DNA of 62,781 bases, filler included, from Sphacelaria rigidula (taxonomy: Eukaryota), in the NCBI GenBank assembly GCA_964200075.2. It is 6 parts of 6 records of this genome, joined end to end, with 100 filler letters (N's around TTAATTAATTAA, not from the genome) between each part and the next. Parts side by side here need not be neighbours in the genome. Positions count along the whole stretch, not along the records: positions 41,924 to 52,302 come from CAXNAA020006609.1; 5 more parts are not named here. One strand, written 5' to 3'. Shown here piece by piece: positions 7,401 through 52,402 of the stretch (within the stretch, counting starts at the first letter, position 1; the number at the start of each line of letters is the position of its first letter). The notes below the pieces were generated by a model. The model made no database searches. It worked only from the letters and a program-made list of their open reading frames with translations, and was not told the origin of the DNA. The position numbers were made by a program, and so were the translations under genes.

Positions 7401-9190
7401 AGCAACAACGCCGACAACCGTAGACACCCCCGAGCGCAACAACGGGGGGGGCGGTGGAACTCCCAAGATCCCAAGGACGGTGCCACGCCGTCTTGCACTC
7501 GACGATGAATTGTCTCTGCCTCCACAAATGGCAGGTCGCACGCGCAGTGCGACGAGAGCGGCAGCCGACCAAAACGAGCTAGCATCGGCGGCAGAGGAAC
7601 TAGAGAGAATGATGGCGCAGGAAAGAAACGAAGTTTTCTTCCGCGCGATGTCGAGGGATCAGGCGAGGGCTCAAGCGAAGACTGTGCTGTATGAAATGGC
7701 AGAGGATATGTGCAGGATGACGGAGCTGATCACTGCAGCAGCCGGACCAGAGGTGGGAGGCAGCGCGGTCATGCTGATCGAAGAGACCTTTGCGGAGCAG
7801 GAGTATTATCTTTTCAGCCGAAAACGGGACGGAGGAGGTGCCCAGTTTTGGTTTGCGTTCCCCCATCGGTTTGCACGTGAGAGATGCGGAAACTCCCCCC
7901 GTAACAGTAGAAGACATAGAAAAGTCGAAAACAAGGAAACATGGTTGAGTGCCATGCGTGCAGAACTGAATGGGCATGAAACGGCAGGTACATTCTCAAA
8001 AGGAGAAATTCCAAAAGGAGTGAAGATAATCACAGCCAAATGGGTGTTCACTTGGAAAACCGACGCAAATGGTACTGTAACTGAAGCGGAAGCTAGATAA
8101 GTGGCACGTGGCTTTGGCCAGAGATTCGCGGTGGATTATTTTGAGACGTTTGCAGCCACCCTGGTCATGACATTAATTAAATTGGTCATGGCCGTGGCAG
8201 TACAAAGAGGATGGCCACTATATCACTTCGACGTCACCCAGGCTTGTACGAGCCAAAATGGACACGAACGTGTTCATGAAGCTCCCAGAAGGGTTTGGCC
8301 CCTTGACAGGTTGCACGGTTAGGCTAGAAAAATCCATATACGGCGTAAAACAAGCAGGAAGGCAACGGTCCCTCCTCCTGAACACAACACTGATGGAGGA
8401 TGTAAAAATGTCGCAAGGTAAGGCTGACCCGTGTGTGTACAGACTGGAGGAAAGGGGGAAAGTGTGTGTTATACTTGTTGTGCATGTGGACGACATTCTC
8501 ATTGGGGGAGAAACGAAAAGAGTGGAGAGGGTATGTAATACCCTCAACAACAGGTTCCCGATGAAAAACTTAGGTGAAGTCCAGTGGTATATGGGGTGTG
8601 CCATAGAGAGGAATTGGAAAAGAGGTACCATGTTCGTGAATCAGACGATCTTTGTCGACACAATGCTGAAGCGTTTTGAGGTTACGGAATTTTCTGATAT
8701 TCCCGCATCAGTGTCAGCAGATTTGGGACCGGTGAAGCAAGGTAATAAGGTTTTAGATAGGCCATACCAGAGTGCCGTGGTAGGTTTGATGTGGTTGGCT
8801 GGGGTAACCAGGCCTGACATAGCAAATGCAGCCCGAGACCTAGCCCGACAATCACATGACTCATGTGAAAGACACTGGCGAGAGGTGTTGAAAGTTCTGG
8901 CGTACCTCAACACAACCAGAACTACGGCCTGACTTTTAGTTCAGGGGAGAGTAGGCTCACAGTCTATTGTGACGCTGATTACGCCAAGAAAGATACAGAT
9001 CGACGGTCAGTTTCCGGTGTAGCTGTCATGTACGGGGGAATAGCAGTATCAAGTACTAGTCGAACGCAACACTGCGTTACCCTCTTAACCACCGAAGCCG
9101 AGTACGTAGCTATGGCGGAAGGGACGAAGGAATGCATGTTTGTCAGGTCGGTACTGTCTTTCCTACGACGACAAGTAGAGTACGATATTG

Positions 9191-10382: not shown

Positions 10383-10482
10383 NNNNNNNNNNNNNNNNNN
10401 NNNNNNNNNNNNNNNNNNNNNNNNNNTTAATTAATTAANNNNNNNNNNNNNNNNNNNNNNNNNNNNNNNNNNNNNNNNNNNN
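10383..10482. other. Artificial contig linker (44N-TTAATTAATTAA-44N)
   Basis: Fixed 100-bp spacer with stop codons in all six frames; identical to the four other linkers in the window. Confidence 0.98.
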
Positions 10483-20863: not shown

Positions 20864-20963
20864 NNNNNNNNNNNNNNNNNNNNNNNNNNNNNNNNNNNNN
20901 NNNNNNNTTAATTAATTAANNNNNNNNNNNNNNNNNNNNNNNNNNNNNNNNNNNNNNNNNNNN
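20864..20963. other. Artificial contig linker
   Basis: Same 44N-TTAATTAATTAA-44N structure. Confidence 0.98.
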
Positions 20964-31343: not shown

Positions 31344-31443
31344 NNNNNNNNNNNNNNNNNNNNNNNNNNNNNNNNNNNNNNNNNNNNTTAATTAATTAAN
31401 NNNNNNNNNNNNNNNNNNNNNNNNNNNNNNNNNNNNNNNNNNN
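31344..31443. other. Artificial contig linker
   Basis: Same 44N-TTAATTAATTAA-44N structure. Confidence 0.98.
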
Positions 31444-32109: not shown

Positions 32110-35100
32110 CAGCGCCCACAACTCGTCCCACGGGCAACGAGGCATCGGTGATGGCGATGATGACCGCACCGAAGAATACGATGAAGTGCAAGCCCTGGCC
32201 AGGTCGCGAGTGCTGCTCGGCGTCGCACTCGGCCTGGCCCGCGCCGGTCTCGGGGCCGACGCCTCCAAGGGTCTAGTTAAGGCCGCCGCGGTTCGTCCTA
32301 GGTGAGATATGGATCGAGATCTTGGCAGCACCCGCCAAGTACGGCTATGTGGAGGTACAGTAGTGGGCGATCTAACTATTTGGGGGTGTTTCGGGGTTTC
32401 CCTCGCGTACTACTCTTCGATAGAAGTCGAAATTGTTGGCTTCGGTAGACTTTGGTACAACACAACATATCATTTTCGAAACACAGTGCCCAAGTCAGTG
32501 TTACTTGGTGTTATGGGGCGAAACGAGTGAATACCCGTTCATCAGGAGGGTGTTACTGACCGTGAAACACAGTTTTCCCGCCCTAGCACTCTGAGAAGGC
32601 AGAATTTCAGAAAAAGAAAACTGCACATGTCTCTGCAAATATGACCGAGACGGGCTCGATCGACGGTAAATACAAATGAGTAAGAATCTGGGCTGAAACG
32701 TGGCAGGACCCACAATGACCGGTCAGCCCGTAAGTCACTCAATATTGAGTACAGATGATTTTTTCCTCTTGGAATGTGGAGCGGATACAAATATATTCAG
32801 ATTTCCGATGTGATGAGGGGTGGCGAGCGGAAAGAGCTCAAGAAAATCGCTAATCACGAAAAAGTCACAAAATGCCATAACATGAATAGTTAGACCGCCC
32901 ACTGCTGTAAATTACACGTCTTTCCGATTCACATGCCAGCTCTGGTGACCTTGTTTTGTACATTTTATTGGTTCATGCCATACTACGCACTAGTTTTAGT
33001 ATCATCGTGCGTGATTAGTAGCATCGCGTGTGAAAGTGTAAATCTACTTCAAACCTTGAGCGCGCTGCAGTTATCGGGGCATATCCTGGGCCGGAGCACA
33101 TCCCACATGTTCACCGACATGACTCACCCTCAGCCGTGGGCATGGCCTAGTTTTCCACCAGCCGCGCCCGAAGAATTAATCGAAGTGTTGTAGCATATCA
33201 GGTGAACTGCGCGTGTTGAATGGTCTATCCGAGTATGTTTCAGGAATACTTTTGTCATATTCTTGGCCTCAGTAGTCCACATTTGCAGCAAGACTATTAA
33301 CTTTCATGTTTACCCACCCGTAACGTGCTTTGAAAGCCCTCCTCCCTTCGTTCGCCATAAACTCATGCTGCCGATCTGTCTCGGGAGCAGTACTCACTTC
33401 GCGTCTTCACCTTTCCCCCTTCCACGCCCCCTATTCTCCGTCTGCTTCCGTCCCCATCTTGTTCACGCACCCACCCACCCACCTACTTACACACTGCACA
33501 TGCACGAAGGAACGTGTCTCCCGGCGACCCCCGAGACAGGTCCATCGTCCTCATCGCTCCGGCCGCTTCAGCTTTGTGCCTCGCGATGCCGCTCATGGCG
33601 AGCGGTGGCAGCGGCGGCGATGACGGTGTATATGGAACGCTATTCGGGGTTCTAGCTCGGTGCATGAGGGATGCTGTGGACCTACTGGCGAGCGTGGTGG
33701 GTGAAGCCGCAAGGCTTGGGCAAGCAGTTCGCCCAGAAAGGTGAGGGCTGTTGTAAGAATCGTGATACAATAGCCTTTTCACCCATGTCTTATGTGATCA
33801 TGAAACGAAAATGTCGTTTCTATTTCCTTCGAACTACCGTGTGGGTTCTTTCGCTGCGCGAGTACTGTAACCTTGCTCTCACGTTTTCGTTCGTGTATAA
33901 GTTGCCATGGGGACGGTAGGTGCGACGCGCGATTCTCAGATTCTTTATTGTGAATGCATCGCGTGTTGTGCAGTGTTTTCGTGCGTGCTCCCGTTCTGGG
34001 AGAAAATCATCGCCGAACATGAAGCCGCCTGTGTCATTTTTACACCTCCGGGCAGATTATTCAGGCGCCCCGCCAGAAACGTTTTGACAGCAGCGGCAAC
34101 AGCAGCAACCTCGTATGAACGTTCGAATCCCCCCCCCCCCCGTTCTCACTGCGAGCGCTCATGTAACCCACCCGTATCTCCTCTCATCTCTCCTAGCTTT
34201 GCTGCCGGCCCCGAAATGACTCTCATGTAGGTTGGAGCGTCCAAGGGCCGCCGTTGGACTGGCTGCCTCATGCATCCTTTCAGCGCTGTGCCACCTAGGT
34301 CCACGGGCCCAGCGAAGGTCACCACCTTCAGGCTCGCTGCCGCTGAGTGACGTTGGTGTGGCGACGAGAGCAGCAACGGACGCTTTCGTGGAGGTGCTCG
34401 GTCGGGCCTTGGACAAGCGCTTCATTGACCACCTTGGCCGTCCGGCGCTCACCGTGGTCCTGTTTGCCCTGCTCAACTGCTGGCCGTCGTCCGTGAGCGG
34501 GTCCGCGGCACCACCATCGGCAGCGGCGGCGACGACGGCTTCGTCACCACCAGATGGACGGGGATATGCTATGGGCTGGTGGCATACCAGCAGGTTTGAT
34601 TCTTCCGCTGTAGTCGGTGGTGGTGGTGTCGGGGTCGGGGTCGGTGTTGGTACCTGTGCAGCTGGTGCAGCCGGTGTCGCAGCCATGGCGGTCGAACCTG
34701 CCGTCGCCGGCAACTTGCAGACAAATGCATCAATGTCTACATCAGCAACGACCGCCGCCCCGTCGTCATCGCTGCCAGCGTCGTCAGTGATGCTCAGACA
34801 ACCCGATTCGTCGGATATGCACCAGGGCGAGACTCTGATGGCGAGCAGAGGCACCGGCATCGACTCGGGCGGCAGTCGCTGTGCCAATCATTCAGGCACA
34901 GTAGGAGCAGGCAGCGGAAGCTGTAGCGGACGTGGTGGTGATTCGGAGGAGCAGGATGAGATGCAGGACGAGTATGGATCATGGGACCATTTCCTCGAAG
35001 ACGTTGACTTGGAAGCCCTGCTGGCGGGTGGCGGGCAGAACACCATTGCCACGGCCCCATGCGATACTATTCAGACCCAACTCGACAAGCGAAGAGCGGA

Positions 35101-38100
35101 GGAGAGGGAACAGCAACAGATGAAGGAGCGTAATGAAAAGCTTGCTGCCGAAGCTGTGGCGGCCGCGGAAAAAGCGGCAAATCAGCAGAAAGAAGAGGAG
35201 TTGTGGCAATCCCTTGCAGCAAGTGCACGCACGCATGTCCTTCCGCATTTGCCCGANNNNNNNNNNGGCGTGGACAATCGCCCGTTACGCGCAGGGCGAA
35301 TCCTCATCATCGTCCGTCACTCTCCAAGGGTCATCACCATTAGTATATTCATCATCTGCGTCTCCATGTCCTACCAGCAATAGTTTTTCGGCTCGTGGCG
35401 GCGGTGGCGTAGGTGTTGGTGGGAGGGTCGGGTTTGCGACCGGACCTCGGCACACCCATCAGCCCCTTGCAGCGATGACGGCGCCTTATTCTGCTAGCGG
35501 TACTGACGCGGCGGCACCCCTTGCTGTATTTGAAGTAGATGCAGGTGTTGTTTTGCAGGTCCACGCCGCTGCGGCACTTTTGGCACTACGGGGCAGCATC
35601 TCAGGGGTCAGCAGCAGCAGCAACAACTATGACAACACGCTACGTAAAATGGACTATGCCTCCGTCCGCGAGAAATATCTGGAGCTGCACCGGGCGACCC
35701 CGAATCCGCTCTTGCCCCAGCAGCGTTTGCTGGCGCCAGCTTTCTTCTGTTTCGTGCTAGAAAACGTTTGCGAGGGTGGCGGCGGCGGCAGTGACTGCAG
35801 CAGTGATGGTGGTGGTGACGGCGACTTCGTCGGTGGCGGTGGTAGTACAAGCGAGAGGGGCCGGCAGAATCCAGGTCGCGGGAGCAGCCGCCGAGGTGGC
35901 GAGGAGGGAAACGACCGAGCGACACACGGCAGCCCACCCGCTGTAACTTATCTAGGGCCCAGGAGACAAATGATTTTGAGGGAGACGTTGAGGGGAAGGG
36001 AGTGGGAGATAATGCATCTGTGGATGCAAACAGCACTGGATCCCATAGTTTTCCCGGTGCCCCTTCGACGCGGAGAGAGTAGGAGGGATTATAATCCTGG
36101 CGGCCGTCACTTTTCCGCCCAGCGAGGGTGGAATATGACCAGCGGCGGCTCGGACGCTGATGACCCATCTGATGTCGTCAGGGACAGGTTCGACGCGTTC
36201 ACCGATGGCCTCGCGAAAGCATTTAGATCCGGCGGCGCTGAAGCAAGATCGGATGATCGCGTCAGAGGCGGTGGCAGCGGTCGAGCACGGCTTACACATC
36301 AAGACGCCGATGACTTGGTGGGCGTGTTCGACAAGAGGTTGACCTGTTTCGAACCCGAGCAAAGAGCGTCACTTTCGAAGGACGAGAACAAGGCAAGCTA
36401 GCTGCTTCTTGCAATTGTTGGGTCATTTGCGGGTTGAGTTGCCATAGCACACCGCTCAGCTATGTAACCCATAGCTTGTGTCGATGGCTGCCTGTACTTG
36501 GGCACGACCTATGCAATATCTTTGAATAGTGCAGGCTTTGCGGTTGCTCATACGTAGTCCGAACTACAGCTCGGTTGCTGTGTCATACCCCTGGCAATTG
36601 CCCCGCTCCTCTCGCTTACATCCACAAGTTCGGTCGGAGAAGCGCAACCACAGAGTTCAAGTGCCCTACTCCCCCCCCTTCCCCCGGTCGGAAAAAAACC
36701 CTGCTTGGTACATGAGCAGTGCGACACCAGCGGGTGCCGACTTTGAAACAATGAATCGTGTTATGTTTCTGTATGTTACTCCCTCGATTCTGTATCATGT
36801 GTTCATGTACGGGGCGGCGGCAGGTACTGGAACGTATATTAGACCTGCAGTCTGTGGTGGCTCACTGCGGACATCTGTGGACGGAAGCTCTGGTGTTGAC
36901 CGGGCCTGGATCGATGCCTGAGGCTGACAGGAAAAGGATCAAGGGTAGCGTGGTGAAATTCATGCACGCCTCCATCAAGTAAGGAAGTGGGCGCCTCCGC
37001 TTCTATGGTGTGCATCTTTTGTCTTTGAGCGGTGTTGGATGATTTTTTTTATTTGATTGGTTGTCGCACTTTAACTGACCCCCCAGGGATCCAACCGTGG
37101 TCTTATGATAAACGTACCCAACAAAAGCGAAACTGAAACACGCTCTAAGGAAGCAGTGACTCGTCGTTAACCTTGAGAGGCCTTATTTTAACAACCAATC
37201 TATCGAGTAGTGTCGTGTTTAACCCAGATACTGCGAGCTTGTCGCTAACGCGAGACGTTCACTGGTCGCGAGGGTGTTCGGAGGTACCTAGCTCTCGCTG
37301 CATCTCATGTTCGAGAGAAACGTTCCGGTCGATGCCACCTGTGGCTGCTCTCCTGGCCGTGTTCTCTTCATTTTGCATTCGTCTAGATCCTTGAGGCGCT
37401 TTCTTCCGGAGGTTTTCCCGAGAGACACTACACAAGCCGCCACCGAAGCAAGAAAAGACGGTGACGCAGCAGCGGTAGCGGTAGCGGGCGATGCCGGCAG
37501 CGGTGGCGGGGGCGCTACCCCTAAGTCTCGGTATGGCTCAACGTTCCGGCGCCTCTACGGCCATGCAGCTTACTCGCTTGTTGCCGCGCTCTGTAGAAAT
37601 TGCGCCGGTGCGCTGAAGGGTCCCCCCCTCCGCGATCTTGTCGAAGCGTGCTTTGAGGAAATCGCGTGCCGTCCAGTCACGACCTCTGCCGGTGGCAGCG
37701 GAGGCGGAGGTTCGCGGCGAGGGACAAGCGGCGGACGCGCTGAATCTGAGGAAAGGGCGCGGAGTAAACCACACCCCGAGCTGACGGCGTTTGCGGTGAT
37801 GCATGCTTCGGACTTATTACAGTGCTGTTCAGAGGTGTGACTTGTGGGTTCATGCCAAGAGGGGGGGTGGGGGGAGGATGTGGGAGGGCGTGAGGGTGAC
37901 TTATCTCGAGGTGTGATGAGCATGCATATCCAATGCAGTGGAGTAGAGGCTTATTTAAGTTTGCGTTGGACGGTACGTAAGGTGAGGCCGACGCCCGCTG
38001 CTGCAGTACCCTAGTCACCTCTGTTACTATCATGTGGAAGCGATGTGATACTCAGGGCTAACTCTCTAAATGCCCTCCTCTCGCTATCCGCGCCCAACGT

Positions 38101-39868
38101 TTTCCCGCCGTGTTCCGTTTTTCTGTTCGTGCCGATCATGATCATAATCTTCCCTCTGCTGTATGCGCAGATGCCAATGACGTTAGTTCCGTATTCTGAC
38201 TGGATCAAGAACATGAACGACCATGCCATCAATGGACTCTCATCCTGGGATTCACCGCCACCACCAGCAGCGACAGGTAATGTAGGCTCTGCGACGCCGC
38301 CCCCACCGCTAATCTGCTCGCTGGCAGCAGGACTACGCGGAGATCTCCGATACACAATTTCCTCTCACAACCTTCGCCTGTATTCTTCTGCTTCGCGGCG
38401 GCGGTGGCGGCGACGACAGCGGGTACAGGCGCAGATACCCGACGACGCCAACAGCGGCTGGGATGATCCGTTTGTCGAACTGGCATCGGTAGCCGCGCTT
38501 GCTCCCGTGCCCCGTGCACCTTCCACGGCGCTCGCAAAGCGCCAGATATTGACCCGCATGCGACTGGAGATGTTCAGCGACAGAAAGCTTCGCATATCAC
38601 GATTTTTATTGGAGGCTGCCGGGAGGCCGGGAAACACCGCCCGAGATGGGGCGAGAGGAAGAAGAGAGGTGGGGAAAAAAGAGGAACAGCAGCAACAACA
38701 CCTGCGCGTTCTGTTTGCCGCCAATAGCGTAAACAAGACGCGCCGTCTTGTCGTCTTGTTGGCGATGGTTTTCGGCAGCCGGCGGTGTCGGCATCCGGGC
38801 CTGTCTGATCCACCAAACGCAGCGGCGACGACAGCTGATCGATCTTCAAACACGATCTCGGCTCCCTCTTCGTTTCTCCCGGTTTCACCGCCTCTGGAGT
38901 TGCGGCGGGACATTATTGTGCTCATTCGGCCAGTGTACTCTCTCCTTGGGCAAGCGCTTTTGGGAGAGCCCGGCCCCGCCCGGCGATTGGAATGCGAAGC
39001 GCTAGCCGCTGCGGTGGCGCTGTCCACGGCGGCGCTCGAGGCAACTGCACTGCCGGAACCGAGGGAAGCGGTGGAGATGAGGAGAGGAGAAACTACTGGT
39101 GGAAGTACATTTGAATCGATGCCGCAGACGCCAGAGGCAGCAAGAAGAGGCAGATCTAATTCTACCATGACAGTTCTCCAGGATGAGAGGCGAGTCGCGG
39201 AGTACTTTGCGCAGGTGATCGTTCTTGCGGTCGCGACCAAACTCGACACGTTCTTGGCCGCCATGGGCGCAGCCGCCGTTGCGCCGGTTGAACCCGATGT
39301 CATCGGTCCCGGCGATGATGACGCCAGCGGACGCAGCTTATTGGGAGTGCGTGGTGATCACAAGCAAGAGCTGCGAAGGTCACCACAACTCGAATCACTG
39401 CGAGATTTGGGACCGCGAGAAGTAGATCTAGAGCGTTTGTTGAGAGTCATGGGGGCCTGGGATGTCCACGGTGACGCACGAGGGTGGCCACACAACGCTC
39501 CTCCTCCTCCTACGCCGTCACAGCCGGGCGGCGGCTGCGCCACGGCTGATGATGCGATGGTCATGGCGATGGATAGTGAAACAAGATATGGGCAAAAAGT
39601 GAGCGAGAAAGATGGATCATCGGACACGCCGCTGTCATCCTTGCTGGACGAAGTGGACGCGATGGTGGAGACATTTGAAGGCGAGGTAATGGTGTCTACA
39701 CGGGGCCGAGATTCGGAGACAGGTGAAGGCGAACAGGAGGGGAGTGCTGTGTGGTGGCGGCGGGTGCAGCGCGCGCTGATGCCCAGGATTGCGGCGTGTA
39801 GGCTGCTCTTGACCGGGGGCGTGGTTGACGTCGGCGCTGGCGGCAGCGGTAGCCGTAGCCGATACTAG
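32110..39868 (+). CDS. 3' part of a large multi-exon gene of unknown function; exons ~32110-32301, 33510-33740, 34231-36392 (10-N gap at 35257-35266), 36851-36978, 37387-37834, 38171-39868 (stop)
   Basis: Long ORFs (383, 422, 177 and 607 aa) joined by phase-compatible splice sites (intron phases 2,2,0,2,0). Helical Leu/Ala-rich segments alternate with Gly/Ser/Ala low-complexity inserts. No domain recognised. Confidence 0.85.
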
Positions 39869-40663
39869 TGTGTGGACATGGTGTGTACATAAATATTATG
39901 TTCGGGTATGCTTGGGTGTTACCGGAGTCTAGCTGGATTTCAAGGATTGCATACGTCGGGCAGATTATCCGTGTCAAGCGGGAGTCACCCGTGCTTGATC
40001 AACGTCGGTAATGTACACATCGATGACTTTCCCCCGGAATTTTTTGTTGGACGCTGGCCGAATAGCATCATGATATGTCAATTGAGCATAAAGCTAAAGC
40101 GATCCTTCCTTTCCCAGCCGCACATGAGTGCGCACCCTGAACGAGGAAATACGAAAACGGCCATCCATACCGCCGCTGGCGCAACTGACCATACGTCTCA
40201 TGAACGCAAACCACAACCATTTTTCCTCACCACTTATGGTCCTGCTACCGAACGTGGAAGAGTCCCACGGTTTTCCAAGGAATTACGTCCCACCACGACT
40301 TGAAGCGCTAGAAGCACACGAAAAAACGCCACAAGGTGAAGCAGGCCTCCACGGTGCAAAGCTCGGAAAAGAAACGAGAAAATCTGACCAATCCATCAAT
40401 CGTGCGGGATACATTCCTGTGTACAGATATCGGTACCTCTTTTATGAAGTCACAAGAGCATCCACTTCATGTTCCATGTGCCCGGGTTGTTACAGACAAC
40501 CTACAGTATTGTAAACATGTACCATATTCCCGGGTCCCACAGGCTGGCAGGTGAGGAATCCTGAGTACTGTTTGTCGTATACTGCATTCGGATTTCTCAC
40601 GGGTGTATTGAACTGTTTCTTGTATACGTATTACTAGCATTCAGATTCCACAAATAAGGGGTA

Positions 40664-41095
40664 AACACGGGATTTTACAAATTGGGGGTATGGATGTTTT
40701 ATTGAGGATGAAAACCCGGAGAATGAAAATGTTCGTATCCACACCAAATCTTCGAAGTATGCTTTCATCTCTTCTCTTGCTGGTAGCTATTGACAACTAC
40801 TACACGCCATACAAATTTGGATTTCGATAACCGAAATGTCGGGATCCTAGATGAGGAACCAATTTTGAGGAGTTTTAGGTGTCCGATCGAACGCCAAAAT
40901 TGTTTTTTCACCCAGGACCCCGATACTTCGGTTTTTGAAATCCAAAATTGTATGGCGTGTATAAGTTGTCAATAGCTACCAGCAAGTGGAGAAATGGAAG
41001 CGTACTTGAACATTTGGTGTGGATACGAAATTTTTTAATTCTCCGGGTTTTCTCACACAAAAAACATCCATCCCCAATCTGTGAAATCCCGTGTT
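40664..41095. mobile_element. Foldback MITE, ~200-bp imperfect arms and short loop
   Basis: AACACGGGATTT...TTCGTATCCACACCAAAT...CTTGCTGGTAGCTATTGACAACT...CAATTTTG is mirrored by CAAAATTG...AGTTGTCAATAGCTACCAGCAAG...ATTTGGTGTGGATACGAA...AAATCCCGTGTT. Confidence 0.88.
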
Positions 41096-41823: not shown

Positions 41824-41923
41824 NNNNNNNNNNNNNNNNNNNNNNNNNNNNNNNNNNNNNNNNNNNNTTAATTAATTAANNNNNNNNNNNNNNNNNNNNN
41901 NNNNNNNNNNNNNNNNNNNNNNN
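41824..41923. other. Artificial contig linker
   Basis: Same 44N-TTAATTAATTAA-44N structure. Confidence 0.98.
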
Positions 41924-41952
41924 TGGTCGCGTCACCGGCTAGGGAGCGCGTG

Positions 41953-41984
41953 GGGGGGGGGGGTGGGCCGGAGGGGGGGGGGGG

Positions 41985-42017
<33 letters not shown>
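41953..42017. repeat. Poly-G tract near a contig end (possibly low-quality sequence)
   Basis: Directly visible. Confidence 0.8.
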
Positions 42018-42018
<1 letters not shown>

Positions 42019-42286
42019 GATTCACGGCGACGGGAACACGAAGCGCGCCCGGGGCGAAAATTATACGAGACACGTTTGCGGACGTTGATACAGTAGTACA
42101 ATACTTTCTGGCTAGCGGACAGCAACACCTCCCCTTCGAAGGGGTTTAACGTAATCACCTGGAGATGTTCATGGCAAACAGTGAGCGGCGTGTTTTACAG
42201 CGCTGTTGCCGGTCGATATCAACCTCAATGGGGAGGGGGGGGGCAAGTCATACTCCATCCCCTACGGTATAATCGATGACTCTCAC

Positions 42287-45200
42287 CCCCGCCGAGCATC
42301 CACCGTGATGAGAGAAATCTTGCCGATGTGATAGAGTGTGGACAGCACCACCATTCGAAAAGTCAGCGAGGAGAAGTAGCGAACGGCCATCCACATCGAC
42401 AGCAATTCCCGGGCCCAGTACGCCGCCAGTACTGCGGCGATAACCCAATACATCCGTTTCCTGAGCTGCAGCAAAAAATGGGATATTGCGGCAAGGACAG
42501 TGCGCCGCGAAGGGGCAGTGGTGGTTAACGTAGCCTGGCTAAACTTTGAGAAGAATGCAAACAATGCCAAAATGAGATACGGCGGACGTGGGGGGGAACA
42601 CATACGCGAGAACGGTACGAATACGACCTAACCTAAGCTGCCCCAATAGCCCCTACGAAACCTTGGTTAGGCACCACCTTCATTACAGGCTGGCTGAAGA
42701 GTAGGTGGGAGACTAGTCAATGGAACCAGGCTCCAAATTTCAGTCTCGTTAGCAAGGGTCACTATCCACCCCCCTTGGATCCAAAAGTTTTACATGGGGG
42801 TAGCTGAGGCACAGGAAGGGTATACTGACACCAAGTAGTTCTCCACCAAACTGATACTAACTGACCCTTCAAACCACGACAAAGCCCAGTCATTGAATCC
42901 CACACAAGGAGATTATGCTACGCATGAGGGGGTAATTTAATCTGAAAGGTCGCAATCCAACGGTGGATGTCGGCAATACTTTTTTGCCCGGCACAATACA
43001 CCACAGAAGCCGACAACCCTCCCCCCCCCCCCCCCCTGTGACGTCTCCCGTTCAACATTCAACTACAAGCATCGTCCCGGAACAGTTCCGCAGGGTGACA
43101 GGCCAGGAATATGCGGGGTTTCCACGGGGCGGGGGGGGGGGTTGACAGGGGGGTGGGACCTGTTCGCACAACAGCCGAATAGCCCACCAAATCAACCATA
43201 TGTGTTCGGAAGTTTCTCACAGAAAACCATAATCCAGGAAGGAGGCCCGAGAGAAGCGGAGTAACCATTCTAACCAATTACGGTTGTCAAAATGGTCACC
43301 TTGTTCCCCTATAGATGGACCGCAGATGGACTACTTGTTTTTGTCTGTAATGGCTGTGTTTCTCATTTTGGTCACGACAATTCAACCGTAGATACCATGG
43401 GCATGAATGACGTACTTTTACGCTGCTCGTGGTATTTGCCGCCTGCCTGACCCTTAATGTGTAGCCAGCATAGCGTCTGTCGTGTTGTTATGTAACACTA
43501 AGGAGATACATCGGCGGCATGCCGCAGACTGTGTTCAGTGCAGAGCGACGCCACGCTGATCGTTGCTCGCCGTTGTATCCAGCGAACGCATACGTCACGT
43601 ATACTGACTCTGGACGCAATTGAAGGCAGGGTCAAAAACCGGCGAGGGGTTCTCCGGGACTCTTTTCTGCACAGACCCCCAACGTCCACATATTCATGAA
43701 CAAAGACGTTTTGTGTAGCAAAAAAGTAGCTGTTTTCAACCCTAAATGTGGCATAGTCCATCCGAGTAGGGCTCGCGGTCCACGGGTCAAGGGTTGGCGT
43801 CGGTTGGCAACGACGCGGTAGTACACGCCCCTCACTGCGTAAGCTAGGTAACCAGGCTACCGTTTTTTTCTCGTATGCGTTTTTTTGCGGTCACCATGAT
43901 GGTGGTCGAGCTACATCATATTGCACGGGGCGGGAAACCCGGACTCTGCGCGAGGGGATGATCATACTTTGTAGTGTTTATATGACGAGACACCGACGAG
44001 GCAGTGTGTAACCCGTGGCTGTCACTGTAAGTAGCGATGTCAGAACTGTACGTAACTCGTCGTGTAGGCTGTCATCCATATGCAAGATAATCAGTACGCT
44101 TCGGCCCGAACAATCTTAGCAGGGTGCAGCTCACCCTTCATGCACTCGCCGAACACATCACGGCGCTTGGGGCGTGGTGATTGGGAGCCAGGTACGGCGA
44201 AAACACGGGGTGCTCCGTCCCGACTTCGTAGGGATGCGAGGTCAACGGTCTCATGACTTCGACACGCAACATCATGAGTATACCCCTCCCTGGACACAGG
44301 AGGGCAGGCATAAAATCCTTTGGATTTGAGTTTGCGCAGACACAGGCGACTCTCTCGTGGTGAAGGCGCTTCTCAGCTGTGCATACTGGCGGAGAAACAG
44401 GACGAATTCGGTTTTGGCCGTCGCTTTTTTGCATTTGCGAATGTCCCTGCGGGGGGAATGTGTGTGCCTAGCCTGCGTTTTGAGGAGTCTCCTGCCTCGC
44501 GTGTACCAGATGAGCGCTGGTGCAAATAACGACGATAAGCAAAGATCTACACCGATGCAACAGGGTTTGAAATGGGCAACACATTACGTTACACGAAAAT
44601 ACAGTGCGTGATATGGGGGGTATAGAGGAGATCAAACGGACGCTGAATGGAAGCCATACATCCATAAACGTTCGAAACTCATTTGACAATTTTCCAAACG
44701 CCATTTCTTTCTGTGCTTCGCTTTTGTTGACTTTTTATTCCATTTTTTTTTTCACGTTTCAGTCGACCATGTCGTTCGGTTCGACTTCTTCTGTTCCTTT
44801 TCTTCAGCGAGTGTTCCAGTTTTGTTGACTCTTCATCCCCTCTTTTTCTCCACGTCTCAGTCTACTATGTCGTTCTGTTCGACTTTATCTTTTGTTCCTC
44901 CTTTTTCTTCAGCGAGTGAATCAGTTTTATTTTCCTTGGGCACGTCTGTCATGAGACCGCGGCTGGATCCCTGGGGGGTCAGTTGAAGTGCGACAATCAA
45001 CCAATCAAAACTGCCAAAGATCTTCGCGTGCATGGGACAACGACGATTGAAGTCCACATGGAGCAGCGAATTAGCAATTTGATTCTCCGCGCTCGAGAAA
45101 AGAGGTACCCACGGCGCGGTCAGTGGTTTTCATGAGTCATCTACTATTAGGATGTCCGTGGTAAATCGCTGCCTCTTCTCAGCAGTACACAGGATACCTC

Positions 45201-48200
45201 TGCGGCAGGGCGAGACTCTCGAGAAACATACAGCGCGGAGTGGTGTGTCAGCTACATTGCCTACGCTGGTCATAAGGGATACAAGAATACCACAGCACGG
45301 TACTGGTACTTCGCACAGGCGAGACCTTTGTACAACTCACCAGCGCCACTCCGTAGTTACGATCCAATTTCTGGCAGAGCGGATTCACCAGGATATTGGC
45401 ATGCTGAAGAAGAACCCACACCTCGTGCACAAATACCCCCACCGTAAACCACGCAGACCAGCCCCTCTCTTCCTCACTACCGAACTCCTCTGCCGCATCT
45501 CGCTCTGCGGTCTCCTGCGGATTCGGTCGGCCGGTATCTTTGCGTGCTTCTGGTTCGCTTCGGCGGCTATCCTTTTCGGCCGGCTTCCGGAGTGAATCGT
45601 GGTCAACAAGTTGTTGCTCTTGATCCGTTACTGCTAGCAGGTCTTGAACACGATGCTGATAGTTCGGGTTCGGGTTAGGGATAAGGGACACGGTGGGGAA
45701 GCGACGGTAGTTATGGGTGAGGTGAGGAAAAGGGTACATGAATAGTAGAGTATGGCGAACGATATGCTGTCGTTGAATGAGTTTGGCGAGTAACACAACA
45801 GCCGCACGTCACCTGCCGTCACAAACGGCCGATCGGGACGCGCGGAGGAAAATCAGAGTTTGAAGGATGGCGAAAAATGTCTAGGTTCTCGCATCCGCTT
45901 ACCTGGCTCATCAGAAGGGCGGCGGTGGACGTGTCGACGCGCGTGACCCAAGAGGGAAGAAAACATGCTTGGATCATGTTCCATGCTATGAAAACGGTAT
46001 TACCTTCCACGGATTTATCGCCGTCTGCTTCAGCTCTCACTGACCATTCCAGGACAACTGAGGTAACGTTCACCGGGATAAGAAGCGCAGCTCAGAGCGT
46101 TTGCTTGTATCTCAGCCCAGTATAAGCCAGTCCTTCGCACAACGGTACCGAGTATACGAGCACTGCCCCCCCGAACGACGCCCCCTGGTGACAGGTTCTC
46201 AGCTAGTGCACCATGTCGCTCATCAATCCGACACGATATACACCACCGCCTATTCCGTAGATAGAACGATGGTTTCCTTCATGATCACCACGTTTGCTCG
46301 AACGTGTTGATGAAAATCATCGTCAGACACAGTAGCCGTCATCTCTATCCCACATTGGAGCACCCTACAGGGGTGCCGGCAGGCATTGGGGTCAACACAG
46401 GTATTAATATTAATAGCATAACAAGCACACGAGTGCTGCGAACGCCATGGTCGAAGGCGTTGGTTGCCCTGCGCATGCGGGCGATAATCCCGCAGGTAAA
46501 CCGACCGACGGTCTACCCGATGGTCCACTTCCACCGCAACAGGTTACAACCACCCCATTGAATTATTCCCTCGTAATGCCTGCTTGGGCCTTTTTGAGTC
46601 CCAAGTGATTAGAGCATGTTCGCCCCCCACTTTGAGAGGGAGTTAAGATCATCAAATGACGGGCGATTATTGGTGACAATATGACTTGAGGTACGTCGTA
46701 TATCACCACCCCCACGTTCAGCCTGGTCCGGCGAGAACTCGGCGTGCTCCGTCCCGGCTTTGTAGGGGCGGACGCCCGATGGGGTTCGCTTCGGTTGGCG
46801 ATGACGCTGTAAAACACGCCACGCACTGCGTAAGCTAGGCAACCGGATGACCGTTTTTTTTCGCACGCTTGCGTTTTTTGTGCGGTAACCATGATGGTAG
46901 TCGAGCTAGATCATACTCTGCGGGGTGGGGGAACCTCAACTACGCGCAGAGGGGATGATTGTACTGCGTAGTGTTCAAATGGTGAGACATCCCGGAGGCA
47001 GTGTCCGAGCCTTGGCTGTCTCTGGAAGTGGCAATATCAGAACATGAAGCAACTCAACGGAGGCTGCCATCCAAACGCAAGATAATCACTACGCTTCGGG
47101 CCGAACATCTTAGCAGGATGCAGCTCATCCTTCATGCGACTCGCCGAACACACCACGGCGCTTCGCGCTTGGCGATTGATTGCGAGCCTGGTCTGGCGGA
47201 AACCTGGCGTGCTCCGTCCCGGCTTTGTAGGAATGCGAGGTCAATGGTCTGATGACTCTGGTGTGCGAGATTATGAGTACACCCCCCCGTATGATGTATT
47301 GTCGGGAATCAAAAGCTCATCACACGCGTTATACCGCGCCAACTACGACTGCTACATATCACCACGGCACGAAATAACTCCGACATGAAACCTTCATGGT
47401 TCTCTTTGTTTCATCGTTGTTCCTTTTCGATATTATGGAGACGGTGCTTTGGAAGCGTATGCGTGAAGACAATCCGCACCTCGCTTGAGATGACGCCGAA
47501 ACTTAGAGGATGTGAAGGTTGGCTCTAGAGGAAGGTGTCACAGTCACAGCTGCAGCAGCGGAAGTCGCTGAGAACCCGGTTTGCATTGAAACGGTGGATA
47601 CCACCGAAGCGTCGGACTGTATTTTTTCAGCACCCTGCTGTCTGATGACGATTATAATGGGCACGGTGTCAGTCGGGAACGCACGCAGCGACAGATCCTG
47701 CCGGCCTCATCCTGAATCTTCGCCCAATTATAGATGAACGCTAAAAAGAAACTAGCAAAGAAGGATAATTTACGATCCGCTATATATGCGAGGGCTGGGA
47801 GCTGAACGTTCCCGCTCAACAAACCACGACAGGCGAAGGTTAAGCTCCTATCGCGTGACCGGTGGGTTGTGCCACGGATCCTTGCCGGCATACCTTGCAA
47901 GGGGGGCAACGTCCTGGTGTACACAGACAGTCCTACCACCACCGGGACGGCCGTGCGAACAGTCTGGCAGCCGCGGTGGTCGTTGTAGTGATGTTCCCCT
48001 AGCGGTATCAACTTAGAATAAGGCCGCACAGGGCACGTGGATATTTCGGTGATTGTCCCACTACCACATCGGCCATGTGTTGCGGATTATTTCATGATCT
48101 CACCGCCCATCATGTATGGAAATGTACTACACCCTAGACACGAGCTTTCTACAGTCAGTTTATAATGTCAAATACTGTACTGGGCACTTGCGTGGTGAAG

Positions 48201-49225
48201 GATCATCATTCTCCTGGGTTGCACAACAAGCTCGCAACTGCAGTGCCATACGCTTCGTCTTCGGTTACACAATTCGGAACTTTTTTGGAGAGCACACTCA
48301 TCCATGTCTGAATCAGAACACCCGCTGTCATCCCTTTGCCAACCAACGCTCTACATTCGCTGTAATACGCGCTATTCCGTGCTGTAGATGACTCTTCGTA
48401 TTATGGCAACAGTTTACTCCCTGGACATTGTATGGTCAACAGATGCAATAGACAAAATATGTACTGAATAAAGTATAGGCCTATCGCAACTCTTGGCCGA
48501 AAATAGTTGCAACCGGCCTATACTTTACCCAGTACACTTATTGTCTATCGCATCTTTTGACCATATTTTGTCACGGGTGTGCAAGAGTTCAAGGGCAGGT
48601 CGAGTAGGGTATACATAATTGCGGGGTATTTTGAACGTCGTACTTAATGCACATAAATAGGGGTAGGGTATTAAGGGTTGCTCTCGAGTTATATTTTGGG
48701 ACCTGTGCGGCTTCTATTTATAACACCCTACCCCAATTTGAGTACTGGAAGTACGACTTTCAAAATATCCCGCAGTCGAGTACAGGTATACTCTACTCGA
48801 CCTGCCCTTGCAAAAGTTCAAACTGCAGAGTTATACCGCGATAAACCAACAAGGCGGCGAGGCCATGTAACTCTTCAATACAACATAACATTCGAAACGT
48901 CGTGGGACTATTCCATCCCCGATCCACACTCACTGACCGCTAGCGTGTCCATCTTGCTGGACAGCTGCTCCACATGCTTCATCATCTCGTCCAGCGTAAC
49001 AACAGCACCCCCACCTCTACTCTGGTGCGGAGCTGATGCCTCACCATCCGCGTTCGCTTCTCCAGTGGTCATGGCTGCGCCGCAAGGCGCTAAAGTGCCG
49101 CAGAGGATCAGGATGAGCATACAGTGACAGGATAGAGTGGAGAAGATCCACATACTATCTCTTGGTGGCGGTCTGCGACGAAGCATCGCAATGCTTCGTG
49201 GTCTAGGTCTTCTGCCCTGACGCAT
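42287..49225 (-). CDS. 5' part of a putative secretory-pathway or membrane protein gene; exon 1 49225-48938, exon 2 42534-~42287
   Basis: Exon 1 has a hydrophobic signal-like segment (MLILILCGTLAPCGAA) and LDEMMKHVEQLSSKMDTLA, with donor GCG|GTCAGT in phase 0. Exon 2 follows acceptor CCAG| in phase 0 and encodes ATLTTT..MYWVIAAVLAAYWARELLSMWMAVRYF. The start codon, the exon 2 donor and any intervening exons are uncertain. Confidence 0.5.
43791..44291 (+). repeat. Dispersed repeat family B, copy 1
   Basis: Co-linear with 46781-47288 (CACTGCGTAAGCTAGG, ACCATGATGGT.GTCGAGCTA, GCAAGATAATCA.TACGCTTCGG.CCGAACA, GTGCTCCGTCCCG). Confidence 0.88.
46720..47288 (+). repeat. Dispersed repeat family B, copy 2, with ~47-bp internal direct repeats
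   Basis: As for copy 1; AGCCTGGTC.GGCG..AAC..GGCGTGCTCCGTCCCGGCTTTGTAGG occurs at 46720 and 47185. Confidence 0.88.
48415..48581. mobile_element. Palindromic MITE A (167 bp) with termini related to the 5202-6852 element; 8-bp TSD
   Basis: Ends TACTCCCTGGACA...TGTCACGGGTGTG; arms pair along almost the whole length; flanks CAACAGTT / CAAGAGTT. Confidence 0.8.
48590..48810. mobile_element. MITE B (221 bp), CAAGGG...CCCTTG termini, 8-bp TSD (P- or hAT-like)
   Basis: TIR CAAGGGCAGGTCGAGTAGGGTATAC / GTATACTCTACTCGACCTGCCCTTG, 1 mismatch; flanks CAAGAGTT / CAAAAGTT. Confidence 0.9.
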
Positions 49226-50480
49226 GATATCTGTTCATGTAACCGACGTTACCCAGGCTGTAGGTGGCAGATACAATACTGTGGTTTCACAACAGCGGCA
49301 GATAAGATATTTTGATTTCAGCACGATGGTGCCTAGGCAATCGCCTTGGATCACGTGCACGGGTCGATAATCCTCTGTGCAAGTTTGATATCAGATGCTT
49401 GTCAGATGTCACATCTTATGCATGTCCCTCTATCCGTGGTTGGTCCTTCGTTGGGATGGCCACGCCACGCGTAGAAACTGTCATGCGCTTAATGGAATAT
49501 GACGCATGCATGGATTTAGTCAACGGCTAATGTGGACATTTTGGGGGATCCGTCAGGCAGGACAGATCGACTACACACAACTGCATGACTCGGAACCAGC
49601 AATAAGGAGAAATCCACGAGACGAAAAGAGATGGATATCAAAGGTGAATGTCATATTTTTCAATCTGCGCTTTTGATGCAGGATGCTGCTGTTGTGAAGG
49701 TTGCTGTACGTTGGCCTTGTTCGACCTATTCTGTGGACAACGGGCGGCTCTATTCCGATCTTTGATCTTTCCTCTTGTCTCTGCTGCCACCAGTGACATG
49801 AGGTAGCGCGGGTAGCGTGTCTGAAGGATCGCTGGCCTATCTGGCACATAGATAACACATCTAATCCATAGGCTTGCTATGTGAGAGACGATGTGTATCT
49901 TGGACAATGAGCTAGCATGGCTGAAAGGGTAAGCAATTGTGGTGAGTCAACCACGTGGTGTGAATAGGGTAGTACACGACAGACAGCAGGAACGTATCTT
50001 GTGGTGAGATCTACCGTTGACCGTTCATGCGAGAAGCGGATCCGAAAAAAGTGGCAGTCCGGTATGTTGTGTGTGATGTGTAGATAGCTGTAGCAGAAAG
50101 ATGGAGAGAGACATTAGAACAATAGAACATCAGACTAGTTCTACTATTGGGGGGAGGCAGGGGTGGGGGGGCGGGTTGATCGCACGAAACAACAAAGTGC
50201 AGTGTGTGTGTGTTTGTTCTCGATCTCATTCTTCATTCATCAAACACCACGCGCGGTTGTGTGCGGCTGAACAGGTTGTCGCCCGCGGTGTGCACGCGTG
50301 TCACGTTGATAAGAAGAGCACATTGTTCGCACGAAACTGCTGCTTACAGCGACGCTTCAAAGTAACCACCCCTCCCTGTCGCAGGATCAGATATCATATC
50401 GTGTAACAGGAGCTTGGCCAGCCGTCATTTTTTTTTCGGGTGATGGGTGACGCGCGGCTTGATAATTAATTCAAGGAATC

Positions 50481-50943
50481 AGACCACTTTTTTATGGGGA
50501 CCAATCTGTATTTGTACAAATCTGAGGATTTCAGCCCGTCTACAGGCTGTTTTCTCCCCGTGGATTGATTTTTCGGACCCCAGTCCGTTGAGAAATATTT
50601 TCCGGCTAGCTGTGAGAAAACAAGGGCAATTATCCGATTCTCTGGAAGTTGGCTCTTGGTATGTCACCTTTCTGCTCATATCGGGACACTCCCGAATCCA
50701 TACAGATCGGCGCCCCAAGTCTGTATGGATTCGGGAGTGTCCCGATATGAGCAGAAATGTGACATGCCAGAAATAAACTTCCAGAGAATCTGAGGATTGA
50801 TCTTGTTTTCTCACAGCCAGCCGAAAAACATTGCTCAACAGGCTGGGATCCGAAAAGTCAATCACCGGGAGAAAATCGCCTGTAGACGGGCTGAAATTCT
50901 CAGATTTGTCCAAATACAGATTGGTACCCATAAAAAATGGTCT
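50481..50943. mobile_element. Foldback element, ~225-bp arms and 13-nt loop (may extend to ~50454-50985)
   Basis: Inner 38 bp are perfectly inverted (TTTCTGCTCATATCGGGACACTCCCGAATCCATACAGA); outer arms are imperfect. Confidence 0.9.
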
Positions 50944-51200
50944 TGAGTACTGAAGTTCGACATTTATTTTTATTTTATCAAGACGCAAACCATTTATGAA
51001 GATACGAAGGGGAAAAAACCCAAAGAAAGTTGAAGCGATTTGAAATTTCGGCAAAAGTAGAAAACGCCACGACTCCATGAAAAAAACAGAACACAGCCGT
51101 GTGCCGAAGTGCGTGTTGTTTGCGCACGGAGTATCTTGGTAAAAAATAGGTTAAACGCTTCTAAATTTGGGGTCGCGCGTGAAACTTTTTGTGTGATATC

Positions 51201-51960
51201 TGTCAACATGTCACAGATACCAATGAGCCAAACACTCAGTGCTGATTGTTTAGCTCAGTGGTAGCGTGTGTTAAGATGTCACAGGTACCACTGAGCTAAA
51301 CAGTCAGCGCTGGCTGTTTAGCTCAGTGGTACCTGTGACGTCTTAACAAAAGCAAATCCCTGGGTCCTTCAGGCTGTTCAGCCATCGAACCCACTTTCAC
51401 CTCAGGGTTGCCATCCCTGTAATCAACGCAAGCTTATCTGTGCTTCTTCTTTCCAGGGTGCAGAAAACTCGCCGTGCGGAACGATCCGAGTTCCCCTGAA
51501 AAGAAGGAATCCCGACCCACGGGGGTTTGAACCCCGAGATTAGCTACTACTGTCAAGATGTCACAGATACCTCTGAGTTAAACAGCCAGCGTCTTAACAT
51601 AAGCTCATACCGAGGTTCAAACCCCCACGAGTCGGGATCCCTTCTTTTCAGGAGTACTCGGACCGCTATGTACGGTGAGTATTCTTCGCCTTGTAAATAA
51701 GAAGCACATGAAAGCTTTTTCGTTGATTACAGGGGTGGCAACCCTTGGGTGGAAGTGGGTCCGATGGCTCAACAGCCTGAGGGGCCCAGGGATTAGCTTT
51801 TGTTAAGATGTCACAGGTACCACTGAGATAAACAGGCAGCGCTGACTGTTTAGCTCAGTGGTACCTGTGACATCTTAACAATATCGCGGCGCCCCGGTGT
51901 TTCAACTCACAGAGGAGCCTCCATTTACATAGGTCCCGAGTTCGAATCCCGACACGACCT
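51201..51960. mobile_element. Concatemer of units bounded by a 40-bp TIR, with tRNA-type Pol III A and B boxes
   Basis: 80-bp palindromes at 51269-51348 and 51801-51880; partial ones at 51201-51268 and 51551-51599. A ~200-bp body occurs inverted (51349-51550) and forward (51600-51800). A box TAGCTCAGTGG lies in the TIR; B boxes are at 51523-51533 (-), 51614-51624 (+) and 51938-51950 (+). Confidence 0.85.
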
Positions 51961-52302
51961 TCTTTCCCTCCACATATTACAGTATTTTTTTATCCAACTG
52001 TGAGAAGAAGCGGTCACTATCGGGGATTGGATCGAGGAAAAGCATTACAGCCCAGTCCGAGTTGGATACTTGTGCGCTCGTTATATATGACAATCGGGTC
52101 GGAGGTCCTCAACCATACTGGAGCTGCTGACGTTCTTGATGCCATCTCGCAGCATTCTCAGTGCACCCTTGACTGTATGTGTCAAAGTTGTCATACGTAA
52201 TTCCGCCGTGCTTTATAGAAAAACTTACAACACGCCATCACGCCACAATAAACAGTGTTTTCGTGAGATCGAGAGTAGATGATACGATTGAGAGTGGCTT
52301 TG

Positions 52303-52402
52303 NNNNNNNNNNNNNNNNNNNNNNNNNNNNNNNNNNNNNNNNNNNNTTAATTAATTAANNNNNNNNNNNNNNNNNNNNNNNNNNNNNNNNNNNNNNNNNN
52401 NN
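52303..52402. other. Artificial contig linker
   Basis: Same 44N-TTAATTAATTAA-44N structure. Confidence 0.98.

Follow-up and report, generated by a model that had tools for sequence, protein, structure and literature searches.

A 680-bp foldback-type block of palindromic repeat modules with RNA polymerase III-type boxes in Sphacelaria rigidula

The stretch of DNA analyzed here (the window; 62,781 nucleotides from Sphacelaria rigidula, assembly GCA_964200075.2) contains at 51201–51880 a 680-bp non-coding block composed of 40-nt arms, 80-bp palindromes, and two bodies in inverted orientation. We put at about an even chance the reading of this block as one non-autonomous foldback-type element, mobilized by an integrase-type DDE enzyme and built from palindromic repeat modules; the block is an unusual variant of known small transposons and not a sign of a new replication mode. 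The window is eukaryotic and repeat-rich, and consists of six ~10.4-kb pieces artificially joined by linkers of the form N44-TTAATTAATTAA-N44 (10383–10482, 20864–20963, 31344–31443, 41824–41923, and 52303–52402); pieces across a linker are not genomic neighbors. The foldback locus is near the end of the fifth piece (41924–52302), and our conclusions on the element rest on this single locus (51201–51880). Data on the family and on the support for the locus come from contigs of several sequencing runs, compared at 80% likeness: run X1 is possibly the source sample of the assembly, X3 belongs to another study, X4 is another sample, and X6 is RNA by guess only and may be DNA, such that no conclusion on expression is drawn from it.

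An exact 5-bp direct repeat, ATATC, flanks the whole block at offsets 0,0 of its outermost arms (Table 1). No direct repeat of at least 3 bp is present at offsets 0,0 for the nine other boundary pairs within the locus, and no 5-bp duplication surrounds the palindromes, the arm-body-arm units, or five other hairpins of the window, for which only scattered 3- to 4-mers at shifted offsets were observed (the scan covered 15 boundary pairs at 49 offsets each, i.e. 735 combinations). The preceding letters of an X6 contig that follows the window from 51883 are those of the left flank (51186–51196, 11/11), one mismatch, and then ATC; this contig represents an empty site in a paralogue, where the pentamer is present once. 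In addition, two contigs each in X1, X3, and X4 carry joints from 51196 to 51931, linking the left flank with the tRNA-like family on the right. Homology between the left (51100–51200) and right (51881–51965) flanks is limited to local matches of 6 and 11 nt. The target is a 74-nt tRNA-like element cut at its 5′ edge by the insertion, whose family is very high-copy (X1 depth 59,477, versus ~45 in the unique flank). At 51936 this element has the majority letter in 99 contigs, other copies have T runs after 51959, and neither ARAGORN nor Rfam gave a tRNA call for the 74-nt element.

All six arms with intact outer ends (four full and two diverged) start with TGTTA or TGTCA, and both the block and each palindrome start with TGTTA/TGTCA and end with TAACA/TGACA (TGTYA...TRACA). 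TG...CA ends with a 5-bp duplication are also the norm for long terminal repeat (LTR) retrotransposons. Termini of the TGTNR type are described for gypsy LTRs and for the DNA transposons Ginger1/2, and the portion of that account consulted gives terminal inverted repeats (TIRs) of 50–180 bp, AT-rich palindromic targets, and 4-bp duplications for Ginger2, and 5-bp duplications for TDD-4/5 (PMC2836005). The true ends are thus the arm sides that face the bodies or flanks, and not the GCTG... sides, so the GCTG...CAGC-ended unit proposed in an earlier note on this DNA is probably shifted in phase relative to the true ends. The outer duplication and the empty site, together with the TGTYA...TRACA ends, argue that the palindromes are modules of one insertion and not junctions between units resembling short interspersed nuclear elements (SINEs); they are probably the terminal and internal repeat modules of a single non-autonomous insertion. 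The earlier statement that units abut without a target-site duplication holds for the inner junctions, but not for the block as a whole, given its ATATC repeats and the paralogous empty site. A DIRS-type origin had also been suggested; tyrosine-recombinase (DIRS-type) integration leaves no target duplication, and this route is not supported, given the exact 5-bp duplication that flanks the block.

The structure that the earlier note had described (40-nt repeat, palindromes, and inverted bodies) is confirmed, far beyond chance. Four copies of the 40-nt repeat with at most three mismatches, containing an A box, are present at the places given there (51269–51308 and 51801–51840 on the minus strand; 51309–51348 and 51841–51880 on the plus strand), compared with 0 copies expected in 100 shuffles. 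Three or four more arm copies are diverged or truncated (51201–51240, 51241–51268, 51551–51591, and 51592–51599), and no further copies of the arm, body, or right flank occur elsewhere in the 62.8-kb window. The locus can be written as [a a′-truncated][a a′] body(−) [a a′-8nt] body(+) [a a′], where a is TGTTAAG...CAGTCAGC and a′ is the complement of a. The 80-bp and partial palindromes, and the order palindrome, body(−), partial palindrome, body(+), palindrome, and then another B-box-like sequence, likewise agree with the earlier description.

Both 80-bp palindromes have mismatches at 2 of the 40 arm positions, and as single strands fold at −41.1 and −40.1 kcal/mol, with 0 of 200 shuffles as stable. 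Taken as a whole, 51269–51880 forms a near-palindrome of 612 nt, whose arms match at 92% over 163 nt and at 78% over 116 nt. It folds at −279 kcal/mol versus −93 ± 7 kcal/mol for 20 shuffles; its center is the partial palindrome B′, the folding of which is no better than that of shuffles (z −0.16). At the left end, 63 nt are 84% complementary both to 51286–51348 and to 51818–51880. The outermost left arm and the truncated inverted arm together form a 68-bp partial palindrome (−15.6 kcal/mol, z −4.1), and TRF reports a period of 68 with 1.9 copies over 51201–51331. Palindrome A has diverging strict A boxes at 51288–51298 (minus) and 51319–51329 (plus), and the head of body(−) has a B box (51523–51533) and a T-arm-like hairpin with a 5-bp stem. 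All four arms of palindromes A and C have a derived C at arm position 24 (51332/51817), which creates a GGTACC; this position is T in the diverged arms (51201–51240 and 51551–51591) and in most genomic copies.

Table 1. Features of the foldback locus and its flanks
Feature	Position	Strand	Details
Direct repeat ATATC, left copy	51196..51200	.	Exact match to 51881–51885, immediately outside the block (offsets 0,0)
Outermost left 40-nt arm (a1)	51201..51240	+	Diverged; start TGTCA
Truncated inverted arm	51241..51268	+	First 23 nt, then 5 other bases; strict A box 51251–51261
80-bp palindrome A	51269..51348	.	Arms 51269–51308 and 51309–51348; ends TGTTA...TAACA
Body(−), 202 nt	51349..51550	-	Head adjoins 51551, tail adjoins 51348
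Central partial palindrome B′	51551..51599	.	Full arm with degenerate A box, and last 8 nt of the opposite arm
Body(+), 201 nt	51600..51800	+	B box 51614–51624
80-bp palindrome C	51801..51880	.	Arms 51801–51840 and 51841–51880; strict A box 51851–51861 (plus); right end ...TAACA
Direct repeat ATATC, right copy	51881..51885	.	
Target, 74-nt tRNA-like element	51886..51959	+	Cut at its 5′ edge by the insertion; upstream part 51186–51200

A scan with A-box and B-box motifs, which we take to be the consensus of RNA polymerase III (Pol III) promoters, gave four strict A-box matches in the window, all inside the locus, and three strict B-box matches, two of which are at the body heads (51523, minus, and 51614, plus). 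The B boxes at the body heads, and the combination of Pol III-type boxes with long inverted repeats, were thus correctly recognized in the earlier note. No A-to-B pair spaced 30–70 nt apart was found at the locus, either with a strict A and a loose B box or with both loose; the arms adjacent to the heads are the degenerate arm (51551–51591) and the 8-nt remnant (51592–51599). In the inferred ancestral arm-plus-head arrangement the two boxes would be at a tRNA-like distance, with the A box starting ~47 nt ahead of the B box, and two contig joints hint at better arm-plus-head copies elsewhere.

ARAGORN identified 0 tRNA genes in the window. None of the Rfam matches was to a tRNA, neither the 16 found over 5 kb with an E cutoff of 1 nor the 11 found over 511 nt with a cutoff of 10; the best tRNA-like match was mascRNA (17.4 bits, versus a gathering score of 42.5). 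The sub-threshold Rfam matches to microRNA (miRNA) families are generic hairpins and are not taken as miRNA genes. T runs are present in both units, i.e. TTTT at 51645–51648 and TTTTT at 51716–51720 in unit(+), and TTTT at 51499–51502 and 51464–51467 in unit(−), with a TTTT ~20 nt past the B box in both heads. No 3′ tail is present: the bodies end ...GCTTT straight at an arm. A tRNA-derived SINE, the head of which the earlier note had proposed, is not supported in view of the lack of a tRNA call (by ARAGORN and Rfam), of a tail, of an A-B pair, and of any sub-unit duplication, together with the inner TTTT and the degenerate or truncated state of the arms by the heads. Judged on its sequence, the block is not a SINE, and its likeness to tRNA is confined to motifs.

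The two units are 100% identical in their outermost arms (40/40), 92.5% in their inner arms, 88% in the outer body, and 76.7% in the inner body (116 columns). Body(−) matches a copy elsewhere (record 3) at 200 of 232 positions (86%), and the two bodies do not pair as closest relatives. At 7/7 informative inner sites the family majority is kept by one of the units, and the derived states that are common to both units and absent from the family majority (51361/51788, 51332/51817, and 51394/51755) are all in the outer part. The 77–88% likeness of the bodies, together with a closer relative elsewhere, argues against a recent hairpin-primed duplication, and the hairpin priming suggested earlier finds no support where the inner bodies are less alike (76.7%) than body(−) and a copy elsewhere. 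On these comparisons, the dimer is not a fresh hairpin-primed copy: its inner parts differ as much as unrelated family members do, and its outer parts have been homogenized, by conversion or by later partial duplication.

Elsewhere in the genome, other X1 contigs number 10–19 per body position and 18–25 per outer-arm position. Body and full arm are about equally frequent; summed depth, which cannot be read as a copy number, would put each at a few tens of copies. The multiple paralogous contigs bear out the earlier proposal of a non-autonomous multi-copy repeat. Paralogous contigs in which a tail leads into a complete palindrome number at least three (records 12, 20, and 28; also 25 and 29). 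In two joints an arm leads into a head, and one of these joints extends 22 nt across a palindrome center. The recurrence of both arrangements in paralogues implies that palindromes flanking a body are a family trait and not a local peculiarity. Loose ends in X6 (51288 and 51318) represent another arm variant, likewise joined center to center.

The locus itself is covered by exact X1 contigs over 50950–51298, 51297–51785, and 51851–52164. An X3 contig spans 51302–51785 with four differences and one gap, and an X4 contig spans 51295–51866 with five differences and four gaps; the presence of these two contigs over the core indicates that the head-to-head core is present in independent samples. 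The contigs of X1, X3, and X4 together uphold the earlier argument that the structure is not an assembly artefact. Contigs built from k-mers are expected to break at palindromes, and among those listed no same-locus contig bridges a palindrome center by at least 31 nt on both sides; the complete palindrome is bridged by paralogous contigs (records 12 and 20).

As a single foldback-type element, the 680-bp block would have entered the 5′ edge of the tRNA-like repeat in one piece, through a retroviral-integrase-type DDE enzyme acting in trans, which would cut or join at the TGTYA...TRACA ends and leave the 5-bp duplication. This enzyme could be either the integrase of an LTR retrotransposon, acting on an element like a terminal-repeat retrotransposon in miniature (TRIM) with an RNA intermediate, or a Ginger2/TDD-like transposase, acting on a miniature inverted-repeat transposable element (MITE) with a DNA intermediate; a DNA-transposon MITE is no less in line with the long inverted repeats and the Ginger-like ends. 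The 80-bp palindromes would be the repeat modules, which, being palindromic, would serve as “LTR” and “TIR” alike, and the layout [partial module][module] body(−) [partial module] body(+) [module] would parallel that of a three-LTR TRIM. Recombination, slippage, and deletion between palindromic modules would best account for the head-to-head bodies, the tandem partial module of 68 bp on the left, and the loss of 32 nt from the central module, recombination between palindromic repeats being able to invert as well as delete. The A box of the arm and the B box/T-arm of the head may be what is left of a Pol III promoter of tRNA origin that the family captured, a history also proposed for TRIMp3 elements; at this locus the promoter is broken.

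The five further long hairpins in the window imply that foldback-type repeats are common in the genome. A bolder and rather unlikely proposal is that LTR and TIR are one and the same throughout one family, in which the 80-bp TGTNR palindrome with its diverging A boxes would act as a bidirectional Pol III promoter module for an adjacent B-box body. With similarly slender prospects, the symmetry of this module would let bodies flip and join head to head, and the family would bridge TRIMp3 and Ginger/foldback elements and target the 5′ edge of Pol III genes.

Several observations weigh against the single-element reading. Its TRIM variant faces modules with no canonical primer binding site (PBS) or polypurine tract (PPT) beside them, only an A box in the module, and inverted internal parts; a TGG within 5 nt past the module was found at 0 of 4 module-body junctions, inspection revealed no purine tract abutting a module, and we know of no described TRIM with perfectly palindromic LTRs or inverted internal domains. 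With respect to the duplication, ~0.7 chance 5-mers are expected over the full scan, and ATATC is significant only as an a priori test of offsets 0,0. The empty site is supported by one contig only, and the 51196-to-51931 joints have a 22-nt side at 80% likeness, shorter than the caution threshold of the comparison, such joints often being repeat-derived. The ends of a transposon are expected to be its best-conserved part, but the palindrome center (the first ~20 nt of the arm, with the A box) is ~5-fold deeper than the arm ends (X1 depth 21,125 at 51313, versus 2,178–4,657 at 51328–51340). Pfam identified no integrase, transposase, recombinase, or Rep among 10 long open reading frames (ORFs) or the 113 ORFs of at least 110 amino acids in the window, nor was a long same-ended partner seen within it. 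Finally, the evidence comes from one locus, and exact-pattern scans with 28-nt and 21-nt arm patterns over metagenome, viral, and genome contig collections gave 0 loci.

Two alternatives would build the block from smaller units. A local rearrangement, in which fold-back priming or template switching at the short central palindrome inverted and duplicated a palindrome-body unit, in the manner of palindrome formation driven by short inverted repeats, would explain the near-perfect symmetry about 51546–51601, the identity of the outermost full arms, the restriction of the three shared derived states to the outer part, and the asymmetric central deletion, which is said to be typical of stabilized palindromes. 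We give this alternative a small chance: it leaves ATATC a coincidence despite the empty-site contig and the exactness of the duplication around the block, likeness over the inner 116 columns is only 76.7% and the units differ there where one keeps the family state, and the recurrence of tail plus full palindrome in paralogues shows that body-end palindromes are not a local accident. The model of the earlier note, in which units of arm, body, and arm with GCTG...CAGC ends, each a SINE head with TIRs, are joined by snap-back priming or by site-specific integration into their own ends or palindrome centers, giving rise to the 80-bp junction palindromes, is in our view distinctly unlikely. The inverted repeat does run ~11 nt past the 40-nt arms into head and tail (9/11 match), which makes a coherent unit with ~52-nt TIRs. 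Pol III transcripts are expected to start shortly before the A box, and the palindrome center is 10 nt before each A box, near this expected start, as snap-back at the 5′ end of an RNA would produce; the center is also the most abundant part, other arm variants are joined center to center (X6, 51288 and 51318), and the inner junctions have no duplication. Set against these points, the block limits marked by the duplication and the empty site are at the other ends of the arms, the TTTT past the B box in both heads and the further T runs would make a full-length Pol III template rare, there is neither a tail nor a tRNA call, and the divergence of the bodies, with one unit keeping the family majority at every informative inner site, does not suit a fresh snap-back product.

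The order palindrome, body(−), palindrome, body(+), palindrome also has the form of a dimer replicative intermediate, and the palindromes fold as perfect hairpins, as would be expected of an integrated head-to-head concatemer of a rolling-hairpin linear replicon. We regard such an origin as highly improbable, since the 200-nt unit has no coding capacity, the Pfam analysis of the window ORFs found no Rep/HUH gene, the bodies have diverged by 12–23%, the 5-bp duplication points to DDE integration, and three DNA runs show a chromosomal family of low copy number. Under any model of its origin, the block could now serve as a hairpin source of small RNAs, its read-through transcripts folding into a ~300-bp stem that would be diced and so silence the family; we consider this role doubtful. 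The extreme stability of the fold and an exact 169-nt contig over 51533–51701 in X6 are in keeping with it, as is the fact that the only miRNA-precursor-like Rfam matches are sub-threshold generic hairpins; none of these matches comes near its gathering score, X6 may be DNA, its status as RNA being a guess, and such a role explains neither the termini nor the duplication.

Other repeats surround the locus. Beside it, 50488–50937 is a 450-bp near-perfect hairpin whose arms match at 85% over 150 nt and at 92% over 75 nt, with a sub-threshold MIR820-like Rfam match, no duplication in a simple scan, and no sequence in common with the palindrome family. Further long hairpin-type inverted repeats are present at 40686–41075, 48416–48580, 24278–24384, and 22542–22702. 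The segment 50994–51081 is repeated in the genome (X1 depth 1,050–1,540) and in X6 has loose ends at 51024 and 51056, with one contig joining it to 51931. On the right, 52006–52225 is an abundant repeat (X1 depth 3,000–11,800), other copies of which have a long A run after 52208, and may be the end of a tailed retroposon. A run of ~66 G (41952–42017) lies right at the start of the fifth piece. Pfam matches among the window ORFs are limited to copia and other reverse transcriptase fragments in other pieces: copia-type pol fragments (Pol_BBD and RVT_2) at 4003–4389 and 8177–8929 on the plus strand, and a weak RVT_1 match at 10589–11389 on the minus strand. The nearest Atlas cluster to the RVT_2 piece is diatom-labelled, with the phylum known for three members. 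The region 34000–40000 is GC-rich (55–60%) and includes an ORF of 617 codons (38015–39865, plus strand) with overlapping antisense frames and no Pfam match.

If the proposed organization is true family-wide, the non-autonomous elements with small-RNA promoters (Cassandra, Helenus, and Ajax) would extend to an algal lineage, with a palindromic module design not described for those three. Palindromic terminal repeats would blur the line between LTR-type and TIR-type elements among those mobilized by integrase-like enzymes. Modules of this kind turn up as hits to tRNA-like motifs and to miRNA-like hairpins and cause breaks in assemblies, and their recognition avoids mis-annotation. If the block is merely a decayed foldback MITE, it is an ordinary repeat. 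Literature searches, with subscription journals and Repbase/Dfam outside their scope, found in the texts consulted no account of an element whose terminal module is a perfect 80-bp palindrome with diverging A boxes, nor any relevant brown-alga paper on MITEs or SINEs.

Among known kinds, the block comes closest to Helenus/TRIMp3, multi-LTR Cassandra, Ginger2-type MITEs, and foldback elements. Comparison with tRNA-derived SINEs reveals A/B box or T-arm motifs at a tRNA-like distance (in the inferred ancestral arm plus head), small size, and multiple copies in common; unlike SINEs, the block has no tail, per-unit duplication, or covariance-model tRNA signal, and has inverted arms and inner TTTT. 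With MITEs it shares TIRs, small size, lack of coding capacity, and multi-copy status; its duplication is 5 bp at this one insertion, with one empty-site contig. Helenus/TRIMp3 elements are, in the portion of the source consulted, TRIMs with tRNA-like Pol III boxes and 5-bp duplications (PMC10886601). Like them, the block is small and non-coding, has tRNA-type boxes without a functional tRNA, TG...CA-ended repeats, a 5-bp duplication (as in fungal and plant Helenus), and a repeat-internal-repeat organization (PMC10886601), the direct orientation of the repeats being trivial here as the modules are palindromic. In contrast, Helenus LTRs, as described in that portion, are direct repeats of 120–323 bp that hold both boxes and have an adjacent PBS and PPT (PMC10886601); the block has an 80-bp palindromic module with only an A box (on both strands), a B box 16–17 nt inside the body, inverted internal parts, and no canonical PBS/PPT next to the modules. 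The multi-LTR Cassandra TRIMs of pear offer a parallel for several modules within one insertion, since forms with three to five LTRs in one 5-bp duplication are reported, in the sections consulted, to be common, and three LTRs are present in 182 of 1,175 intact elements with duplications (PMC4079214). Such Cassandra elements and the block both have at least three modules and at least two internal domains in one 5-bp duplication, with a Pol III promoter in the repeat; by the same partial account Cassandra differs in its 5S-derived LTRs of 268–285 bp, its domains all in direct orientation, and its inner LTRs flanked by PBS/PPT (PMC4079214).

Foldback elements of Drosophila (FB and Galileo) reportedly have long inverted arms of repeated sub-modules, a variable interior, no coding capacity, and a target duplication, and the block is like them in that inverted arms make up nearly the whole element. 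They are said to differ from it in their termini and in their 7–9 bp duplications, the FB sub-repeats being direct tandems and not palindromes with tRNA-like boxes. With respect to Ginger2/TDD, the block has TGTTA/TGTCA at all arm ends, 40-nt arms (80-nt modules), and a 5-bp duplication, and so resembles these transposons in its TIRs of tens of bp, TGTNR ends, 4–5-bp duplication, and AT-rich palindromic target hexamer, as far as the portion of the source consulted describes them (PMC2836005). The target hexamer is GATATC here, compared with the RTATAY preference given there, and Ginger elements are not reported in that portion to have Pol III boxes or palindromic sub-modules (PMC2836005), both of which are present in the block.

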